Below are positions 60,808-62,223 of a stretch of 64,000 nt of DNA, in pieces (position 1 is the first letter of the stretch; each line of letters opens with the position of its first letter). Made by a program: the position numbers and the translations under genes. This stretch comes from Candidatus Hydrothermales bacterium (GTDB lineage Bacteria > Hydrothermota > Hydrothermia > Hydrothermales > JAJRUZ01): assembly GCA_039630235.1 (NCBI GenBank), contig JBCNVI010000005.1, forward strand, positions 37,690-101,689, written 5' to 3'. Under the pieces are notes generated by a model. That model had not been told where the DNA came from. It was given only the letters and a program-made list of their open reading frames with translations, and did not search any database.

Positions 60808-62223
60808 TTATTGCTTCTCTTCACCATCCCATTCATCCCAAGGACTTTCATACCATAAACAATCCCACTCTGTCCCCCAACCCCTTAAATCATCCTTGAG
60901 GGGTAAGGATGCACCGTGATTAGGATGATCAACCAAAAAACCTTCAACAAGGTATATCCATTCAAGTTCATTAAAGGTAGCAACATAAAAGGCAGCATCA
61001 TATAGTCTTCGTGTTCCCTTCCAATCCCAAGGTTCACGAGTACCTATGTAATTAGCAAACCACCCGCTAAAGAATGTAAATTGAAAATCATCCCCTACAC
61101 CAGCTCCAGGTATACAACCCCAGGGTGTTTTTATAGGATTCCAACATGCATCAGCATAAGCAGTTCCCCATCCTGAAATATAGTTATCTTCATCCTCATA
61201 ATACTCACTCCATGGATCAGAAAACCACTGGTTGCCCATTCCTATATAGTAAATACCTGTAACAAGATCAGCACATCCAACTGGAGTCCACCAAAGAGCC
61301 TCATACCTCGGCCAAAAACCAAACCAATAAGGTATTGCATACCCCTGCGAATCAAAATATTCCAAAATATCAGCCCTATAGGTATGTGCATCTCCCCCCT
61401 TATTTATATTATTTCCATGTCCAAAACCAGTAATAGCTCTTGACCAATATGGTTTATTTTCAGGAATTAAAGTTAAAAATGGAAAGAAAGAATAACCAAA
61501 GAGCATCGCCTCTATAAAATAATATTGATCAATGAGTGCCTGCTCTCCGGTTCTATCTTTTTCTGGTCCTCTATTTCTCAAAATTCCATAAGGTGGGTAC
61601 CAACCTCCAAGATGGAAGGGATCATTTGGTTCATCTTTTCCACCAACCTTAATTTCTGCTTCTCCTCCTCCTCCATATTCACCAAATGGACCCCAACCGG
61701 GTCTCCAAGCCTCATACTTATTATTTTCACATCTTATAAAGGCTCTTAAATATCTATCGTAAGTTAAAATACCAGCTTCTCTTTCATCTTCCATATCAGA
61801 AGTGTTCCATAGTGCTGGGTAATAACTACTATACCCCCTATACCTATAGGGGAACTCTTTGTTTTGAAAATGACCCTTTGGCAATCTTGAATAGCCTTCC
61901 AAGACAAGGGAATCTACTTTAAAAAATCTTATAAGGGGTCGAAAAGTTTTTTTAACTGAAAGAGAATATTCTTCACCTTCATCCTTTAATTTAATTTTGG
62001 CATCCTTTATATGACTAGATATTTCATTAAGAGCCTTACGGACTGCAACAGTATCTCCTTTGTTTACTATTGCCACTCTATTTGCCTGAAAGGAGGCGTA
62101 AGTAATTTGGATTCTTCTTAAAGCGAACCTTGCTGTTTCAATTGCTCCAAGGGTAAGCATTAAAAAAATTGCCATCCCAATAACTGCCTCCACCATCACT
62201 TGACCCTTTTTTCTATTGCTCAT
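60808..62223 (-). CDS. Giant TadE-like pseudopilin (471 aa) with Trp/Gly/Tyr/Pro-rich C-terminal domain
   Basis: N-terminus KKGQVMVEAVIGMAIFLMLTLGAIETARF is a TadE-like motif. The C-terminal ~300 aa contain about 25 Trp residues (WYPPYG, YWFGFWPRYEALWWTPVG, WGTEWDCLWYESPWDEWDGEEKQ). Confidence 0.5.
   Translation of the reverse strand: MSNRKKGQVMVEAVIGMAIFLMLTLGAIETARFALRRIQITYASFQANRVAIVNKGDTVAVRKALNEISSHIKDAKIKLKDEGEEYSLSVKKTFRPLIRFFKVDSLVLEGYSRLPKGHFQNKEFPYRYRGYSSYYPALWNTSDMEDEREAGILTYDRYLRAFIRCENNKYEAWRPGWGPFGEYGGGGEAEIKVGGKDEPNDPFHLGGWYPPYGILRNRGPEKDRTGEQALIDQYYFIEAMLFGYSFFPFLTLIPENKPYWSRAITGFGHGNNINKGGDAHTYRADILEYFDSQGYAIPYWFGFWPRYEALWWTPVGCADLVTGIYYIGMGNQWFSDPWSEYYEDEDNYISGWGTAYADACWNPIKTPWGCIPGAGVGDDFQFTFFSGWFANYIGTREPWDWKGTRRLYDAAFYVATFNELEWIYLVEGFLVDHPNHGASLPLKDDLRGWGTEWDCLWYESPWDEWDGEEKQ

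Follow-up and report, generated by a model that had tools for sequence, protein, structure and literature searches.

Few adhesion organelles are as widespread as Tad pili, and the specificity of their tips has only begun to be described (2025). The locus studied here raises the question of what a TadE-type protein of unusual length contributes to such a pilus. It lies in a stretch of 64,000 nucleotides (the window, to which all positions refer) from a Candidatus Hydrothermales bacterium, taken from contig JBCNVI010000005.1 of assembly GCA_039630235.1 (positions 37,690 to 101,689 of the forward strand). The gene in question, at 60808..62223 on the minus strand, encodes a TadE-type protein of 471 amino acids, hereafter called the big TadE; all tad genes listed here, and the other features given below with window positions, are on that same strand. 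Our answer, to which we assign a probability of roughly 0.6, is that the big TadE is a modular minor pilin belonging to a type IVc (Tad/Flp) pilus of a thermophilic WOR-3 bacterium and is displayed near the pilus tip for the recognition of a ligand or surface.

The first point to be settled was whether the unusual length belongs to a single gene. The open reading frame (ORF) starts with ATG and runs for 471 uninterrupted codons, with the stop codon included in the coordinates, exactly where a preliminary description made from the sequence had placed it. A ribosome-binding site, AAAGGAG, is found about 8 nt 5′ of the start codon, and the other two frames of the same strand contain 23 and 60 stops across the gene. 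A search of 5.8 billion protein clusters returned nine homologues of 407-494 residues, 40-85% identical to the big TadE and covering 95-100% of its length, from ENA, NCBI, JGI and Logan assemblies. In addition, three GTDB species genomes, metagenome-assembled genomes (MAGs) named 'Candidatus Hydrothermales' or 'candidate division WOR-3', have the gene as a single ORF. The idea that a frameshift or misassembly fused a short TadE gene with an unrelated one downstream, for which nothing but the unusual length speaks, is ruled out by these full-length homologues in independent assemblies and by the stop-filled alternative frames, and relatives as remote as 24% identity have the same architecture; the gene thus stands as genuine.

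The N-terminus was next compared with the processing rules for leader and Glu5 given in PMC10191384. It forms a class III signal peptide, MSNRKKG/QVMVEAVIGMAIFLMLTLGAI (the slash, here and below, marks the cleavage site), in which the leader comprises residues 1-7 (62203..62223) with Gly at -1, and the mature protein would start QVMVE, with Glu at +5. A basic leader, Gly or Ala at -1, Gln at +1, Glu at +5 and a following run of about 20 hydrophobic residues were present in all 16 family members aligned. The preliminary description had called this a textbook TadE N-terminus, and the N-terminal sequence it quoted was found; the Pfam TadE family (PF07811) matches residues 7-47 with 28.0 bits against a cutoff of 22.9, and was matched by each of the 13 family members scanned (best E = 4e-10). 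The pilin module as a whole spans residues 8-118 (61870..62202) and consists of the hydrophobic alpha1 helix (TadE residues 7-47) and a small three-stranded beta-sheet. Both AlphaFold2 models place a helix at 3-53, then a short helix, and strands at 76-81, 85-94 and 106-115, and values of 54-74 for the predicted local distance difference test (pLDDT) are confined to this module. Mean pairwise identity within it is 63-76%. On this evidence the protein is very probably a genuine Tad minor pilin.

In Aggregatibacter, the pseudopilins TadE and TadF are processed by TadV. The big TadE resembles TadE and TadF in its PF07811 domain, its short basic leader, Gly or Ala at -1, Glu at +5, its flp and tadG-like neighbours and a TadV without a methylase domain, but it is about three times the usual size, with some 350 additional residues that make up an orphan domain as far as the comparisons below can tell. 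The usual size was taken from 1.84 billion representatives of about 15 billion proteins, which were searched exhaustively with HMMER. Apart from matches to the family itself, this search gave 42 proteins that align to profile positions 1 to ~130 only; their median length is 156.5 residues and only four exceed 300, which bears out the earlier statement that TadE-like proteins are normally short.

The same search showed how restricted the remainder of the protein is: the C-terminal region was found in only two clusters of the 1.84 billion representatives, both belonging to the family itself. Three of the 42 TadE-only matches are long (451-523 residues). Two of these, P0011 and P0012, proved in profile-profile alignments to be remote relatives reaching into the C-terminal domain, whereas the third, P0010, aligns over the pilin module only. 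P0011 shares the motifs YD-x-LR-F and WYP-x-P-x-G-x-L; P0012 shares 'RKYTGFMHG' (family version 'SRAITGFGHG') and 'GPWGCIW'. Two further profile searches of the 5.8 billion clusters added only P0052-P0059, and the survey was also widened by scans of GTDB genomes and JGI metagenomes. The superfamily thus collected amounts to about 20 proteins, the nine full-length homologues and some ten remote relatives of the same architecture, with Trp contents of 2.9-5.5% across all members. Every member with an identifiable organism comes from a WOR-3 or 'Ca. Hydrothermales' MAG (in the NCBI taxonomy the order is now Caldifarciminales and the phylum Caldifarciminota). These distributions support the view that the family, as sampled in sequence collections, is tiny and lineage-restricted.

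Residues 119-471 are, judging from the family alignment, probably an orphan globular domain and not a low-complexity tail, because conservation extends from end to end and includes sharp motifs (YDR-LR-F, GGEAEI, FHLxxWYPPxGIxRN, KPYxSRAxTGFGHGxN, RRLYDxA and HG...KDDLxG). Three parts can be distinguished. A conserved core, residues 119-294 (61342..61869), contains the first four of these motifs and has a mean pairwise identity of 59%, rising to about 70% in the blocks at 181-240. It is followed by a hypervariable, indel-rich and Trp-dense region, residues 295-400 (61024..61341), with 33% identity and 17% gaps, and by a conserved C-terminal part, residues 401-471 (60811..61023), with 53% identity, which contains W401, RRLYDxA, HG...KDDLxG, W453, C455 and an acidic, Trp-rich tail. 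Across a 16-sequence alignment that includes the 24%-identical relatives, D156, E166, W208-Y209-P210, G213, D232, F267, H269 and G270 are invariant, and R262, Y282, E419 and H436 are nearly so. C360 and C455 are conserved in the subfamily of ~470 residues, a pair that fits an extracytoplasmic protein. The subfamily of 407-410 residues (P0007, P0008 and P0009; L006:321-1553 and L007:336-1568) has extra Cys residues near the C-terminus (GWLCGGCCCGRW) and in 'CKPIWVIKKC', which suggests that disulfides or metals may be arranged differently in its variable region.

This domain was compared with known families and structures in several ways. Pfam, NCBIfam, PHROGs and the PDB gave no match past residue 47, whether the single sequence, 13 members taken individually (Pfam) or the family profile was used; PDB matches to a poxvirus RNA polymerase subunit (E = 0.17) and a sterol isomerase (E = 0.72) were judged to be noise. 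AlphaFold2 was run with 10 sequences (mean pLDDT 37.7) and again with 16 sequences including the remote relatives (mean 39.0). A Foldseek comparison of the second model with the PDB gave no match at E <= 0.001 and TM scores of at most 0.10, and is uninformative because the model is unreliable. By profile, then, no known enzyme was recognized in the C-terminal part, and a fusion to a well-known enzyme, the possibility against which the preliminary description had set its proposal, appears unsupported in Pfam, NCBIfam, PHROGs and the PDB alike.

The feature that had first drawn attention to the domain was its aromatic composition. The protein contains 23 Trp residues, where "roughly 25" had been stated; the enrichment itself holds (4.9% against a background of 0.96% in the window's 39 ORFs of at least 200 residues; binomial tail P ~4e-10), as do the Trp-rich strings that were quoted. 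The next highest Trp content among these ORFs, 2.36%, belongs to the adjacent TadG-like gene. All 23 Trp lie at or beyond residue 139, and in residues 131-471 aromatics make up 21% and Gly 10.4%. The acidic tail is also real, with nine Asp or Glu among the last 21 residues. A self-comparison for repeats in the Trp-rich segments, which had been proposed, was negative: the best 15-residue diagonal scored 40, within the range of composition-preserving shuffles (maximum 31.1 +/- 4.4, ceiling 45), and BLASTP of the protein against itself gave the identity diagonal alone. Only six of the 23 Trp are conserved in at least nine of ten sequences, and an aromatic residue is kept at 11 of the 23 positions. 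Ten of the 23 lie in the hypervariable region, where the densest cluster (WFGFWPRYEALWW..., about 37 residues, at ~297-335) is a variable insertion wholly missing from the 407-410-residue subfamily (P0007-P0009). No similarity to a carbohydrate-binding module or lectin was found in Pfam, NCBIfam, PHROGs or PDB sequences at E values up to 1-10. Nothing in these comparisons supports the suggested carbohydrate-binding module, and it seems improbable that the ligand is specifically a glycan.

We then examined the gene's surroundings, both in the window and at the loci of homologues (L numbers). The big TadE is followed, 12 nt after its end, by a gene for a TadG-like minor pilin of 339 residues (59776..60795; Pfam Tad, PF13400, 31.3 bits against a cutoff of 22.3), which was its neighbour in every locus examined. 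This protein lacks Glu5: position +5 is Phe or Met in all five orthologues (Phe in the window). It is overlapped by 16 nt by the gene for TadE2, a second TadE-type minor pilin of 257 residues (59018..59791; Pfam TadE, 36.1 bits), in which position +5 is Glu in five of five orthologues. Across an Flp gene (Flp-b), the big TadE, the TadG-like gene, TadE2 and a following gene for a 165-residue protein, spacings range from -16 to +13 nt, so that these genes make up a tight operon. A possible paralogy of the big TadE with its neighbours was considered and discarded, as BLASTP gave nothing and hhalign aligned TadE2 over the alpha1 helix only (91%) and the TadG-like protein over a doubtful helix (6.5%). 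About 3.3 kb downstream of the big TadE lies a gene for a TadV-type prepilin peptidase of 181 residues without a methylase domain (56971..57516; Pfam Peptidase_A24, 71 bits), which occupies the same place in L004 and L006. The window showed no paralogous tip cassettes.

A search for homologues in other Tad loci, proposed in the preliminary description, recovered big TadE genes in the same gene order. The window, L003, L004, L005, L006, L008 and L009 share a contiguous run of the big TadE, TadG-like and TadE2 genes, in this order. Around homologues of 64% and 40% identity the order reads small protein, Flp, big TadE, TadG-like, TadE2, a protein of ~170 residues, two to three Flp, TadV and a protease of ~950-989 residues; in L003 the ORF sizes form a matching series. 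Even the ~24%-identical P0012 (L008) is encoded in the order 59-residue protein, Flp, big TadE, TadG-like, TadE within a Tad locus that has a secretin. Full Tad loci surround the homologues at 64%, 40% and ~24% identity (T2SSE, two T2SSF, RcpC/SAF, and the secretin in L008), and upstream in L004 are a TadZ/TadA fusion, TadB, TadC, a TPR protein, a beta-propeller protein and RcpC.

How might such a protein work? In type IV filaments, assembly is primed by the minor-pilin complex, whose cap is a subunit lacking Glu5; since growth proceeds from tip to base, this complex ends up at the tip (PMC10191384). For the KilL/M/N and TadE/F/G proteins, heterotrimeric tips have been predicted in which the outermost part is a variable C-terminal module (PMC12075869), and bulky modular pilins have been argued to be compatible with a tip location only (PMC8179133). 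By analogy, TadV would cleave the seven-residue leader, and the hydrophobic alpha1 helix would anchor the big TadE in the inner membrane, where it could bundle with the alpha1 helices of the TadG-like protein and TadE2 into a heterotrimeric complex. This complex would prime Flp polymerization and come to lie at the distal end of the pilus. The likely apical cap is the TadG-like subunit and not the big TadE, because it lacks Glu5 while both TadE types have it; the Glu5-bearing big TadE would probably sit just beneath. The module of about 350 residues would project at the tip, as it is too bulky for the filament body. On these analogies, membership of the big TadE in a tip complex is probable, and an adhesive or recognition function has about even odds. 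The description "pilus-tip adhesin" is therefore plausible by analogy, with the qualification that the retained Glu5 points to the neighbour as the cap. A slowly evolving core with invariant Asp, Glu and His combined with a fast-evolving, aromatic-rich region fits what would be expected of a recognition module. The only cultured WOR-3 isolate is a diderm, non-motile thermophile on which pili have been seen (PMC12285271).

Some points weigh against this interpretation. Both AlphaFold2 models are unusable over residues 117-471, where pLDDT is 22-42, and the additional domain may thus be either appended to the pilin module or inserted into it. The invariant Asp, Glu and His of the core would fit a catalytic or metal site as much as a binding site. 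Finally, in the Tad and Kil tips described so far the large module sits on TadG or KilN (PMC12075869), whereas here the ~350-residue module is on a TadE-type subunit with Glu5 and the TadG-like protein has 339 residues. A more elaborate version of the proposal is offered tentatively, as something we do not expect to hold in full: residues 119-471 might represent an unseen fold, a class of tip modules restricted to WOR-3 and carried on a TadE-type subunit, in which Asp, Glu and His form a metal or catalytic centre and a diversifying Trp-rich surface sets specificity in hot-spring and hydrothermal biofilms.

Other roles for the locus and the protein were weighed against the same data. Directly after TadV the window encodes a secreted-type metalloprotease of 988 residues (53961..56927), with matches to an FTP propeptide, to thermolysin M4/fungalysin M36 and to NIDO (nidogen-like) domains in three stretches; NIDO domains are unusual in bacteria. 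The locus might be a secretion pseudopilus resembling that of the type II secretion system (T2SS), with the big TadE as a bulky tip that pushes the protease out. The gene after TadV encodes an M4/M36 plus NIDO protease of 949-989 residues in the window as well as in L003, L004 and L006, and the largest minor pseudopilin of the T2SS, GspK, is located at the tip (PMC8179133). We consider this very unlikely. The remote L008 locus has a big TadE and no such protease, GspK-type caps lack the Glu5 that the big TadE has, and the best NCBIfam match of the protease, far below cutoff, is an M36 family dependent on the type IX secretion system. A real filament is also argued for by the seven Flp pilin genes of the window locus, of which two precede and five follow the minor-pilin cassette (orthologous loci have 4-5).

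An enzyme delivered on a pilin anchor, such as a hydrolase that attacks a polymer, the envelope of a neighbouring cell or the cell's own wall, is a less improbable reading of the C-terminal module, although we still hold it to be unlikely. Invariance of D156, E166, D232 and H269, and near-invariance of H436 and E419, persist even at 24% identity, and the invariant charged residues sit in the conserved core and not in the variable, Trp-rich stretch. There are recorded modular pilins that carry a peptidase module (PMC8179133), and in Myxococcus the Tad tips have a part in contact-dependent killing (PMC12075869). However, no enzyme family in Pfam, NCBIfam or the PDB was matched by sequence or profile, there is no recognizable catalytic motif, and metal-dependent adhesion sites are just as typically marked by conserved charged residues.

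Slightly better placed among these alternatives, and still improbable, is a protein that stays anchored in the inner membrane with its domain in the periplasm, serving the Tad machine in assembly, alignment or gating. TadG is listed as a component of the cytoplasmic-membrane sub-complex and not as a pilin in Table 1 of PMC10191384, the family is co-inherited with the whole machine, and a slowly evolving core would be expected of a protein-protein interface. Set against this are the full processing signature and Glu5 in 16 of 16 members, a hallmark of subunits that dock into the filament; a hypervariable, indel-rich region, unexpected in an internal machine part; and the position of the gene among pilin genes and not machine genes.

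Several known systems come close to a minor pilin of the proposed kind. Like the KilL/M/N and TadE/F/G tips, the window locus has three minor-pilin genes side by side (TadE, TadE/F and TadG types), a large variable C-terminal module without a PDB homologue on one of the subunits, and conserved Cys (PMC12075869). With the modular type IV pilins (PMC8179133, PMC9934059), such as Streptococcus sanguinis PilB (vWA) and PilC (lectin), CofB and ComZ, it has in common a small pilin module joined to a bulky extra part and the expectation of tip display and binding. Those proteins belong to T4a, T4b and Com systems, carry the IPR012902 N-methylation motif and mostly have recognizable domains (vWA, ConA-like lectin), whereas the carrier here is TadE-type and the module matches no known family. 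With GspK/PulK, the T2SS cap, the big TadE shares the position of largest minor subunit in a three-protein tip complex, as proposed here, and an extra domain. There is no sequence similarity between the two, and it is GspK that caps the tip without Glu5, whereas the big TadE has Glu5 in all 16 members and its TadG-like neighbour does not.

The design principle is therefore known, and what is new is the module itself and its TadE-type carrier. To call the protein a new class of Tad tip protein was an overstatement, since modular pilins with unrecognizable modules (PMC8179133) and customised Tad tips (PMC12075869) have been described. The family nevertheless indicates that a TadE-type subunit, and not TadG alone, can carry a large display module. 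That module is invisible to profile libraries and to AlphaFold2 at the available alignment depth, which supports a suspicion already in print, namely that too few modular pilins are counted for want of module signatures. For the WOR-3 phylum (Caldifarciminota), with its one cultured member, the big TadE is a candidate for attachment or for filament or biofilm formation; its practical value will be modest until a structure or ligand is available.

The remaining genes of the locus surround this minor-pilin cassette. Directly upstream of the big TadE are two Flp-type major-pilin genes (62237..62649), with likely starts MKKKILLNEGG/EAAVEY and MKFLKNEEG/AAAVEY and a Pfam Flp_Fap match for 62237-62419 (E = 1.2e-6); an equivalent pair of small genes precedes the big TadE in L004-L009. 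A perfect sigma-70 consensus, TTGACA-17-TATAAT (62593..62621; 12 of 12 positions), lies upstream of the first Flp start, at a distance of about 37 nt, and is a candidate operon promoter. Promoter-like sites in the region number 28, with 27.3 expected by chance, so this site is a lead only. Its position implies that the 87-residue ORF called for the first Flp gene is too long and that the real product has about 56 residues.

Five further Flp-type pilin genes, encoding 56-66 residues each with the motif G/A[ST]AVEY, occupy 57513..58464 (Flp_Fap match for 57693-57893), a position at which L004 and L006 have two to three. The Flp genes of the window all have sites of the G/xxAVEY type. Among the downstream five, three are almost identical (...RGATAVEYAMIIGLIALFAFAAYRALGKQVQRII...), and the one at 58047-58220 is divergent, with G/GSSVEYGF.

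Between TadE2 and these genes, 9 nt after the former, is the gene for the conserved 165-residue protein (58511..59008). Its N-terminus is lipoprotein-like (MRGILLIAFIFTIGC; ...FTIGC), with a lipobox predicted from the sequence, and it had no match in Pfam or NCBIfam. In the close clade such a protein invariably comes after the three minor-pilin genes, with 169-176 residues in L004, L005 and L006; in L008 a protein of 114 residues takes this position. The 165-residue protein may be an undescribed Tad accessory component.

On the other side, a polytopic membrane protein of 387 residues (62639-63802) adjoins the Flp genes upstream; its Wzy_C (O-antigen-ligase) match, E = 0.029, is below cutoff, and its place is taken in L003 and L004 by a protein of 497-500 residues. 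In other type IV systems, pilins are glycosylated by Wzy_C-type enzymes, and the 387-residue protein could be a candidate pilin glycosylase. Lastly, in two WOR-3 loci (L004:1-632 and L008:4024-6348) the Tad ATPase is apparently fused to a TadZ-like (CbiA/AAA_31) domain, giving proteins of 725-774 residues that also match PF27713 (UCP018868).

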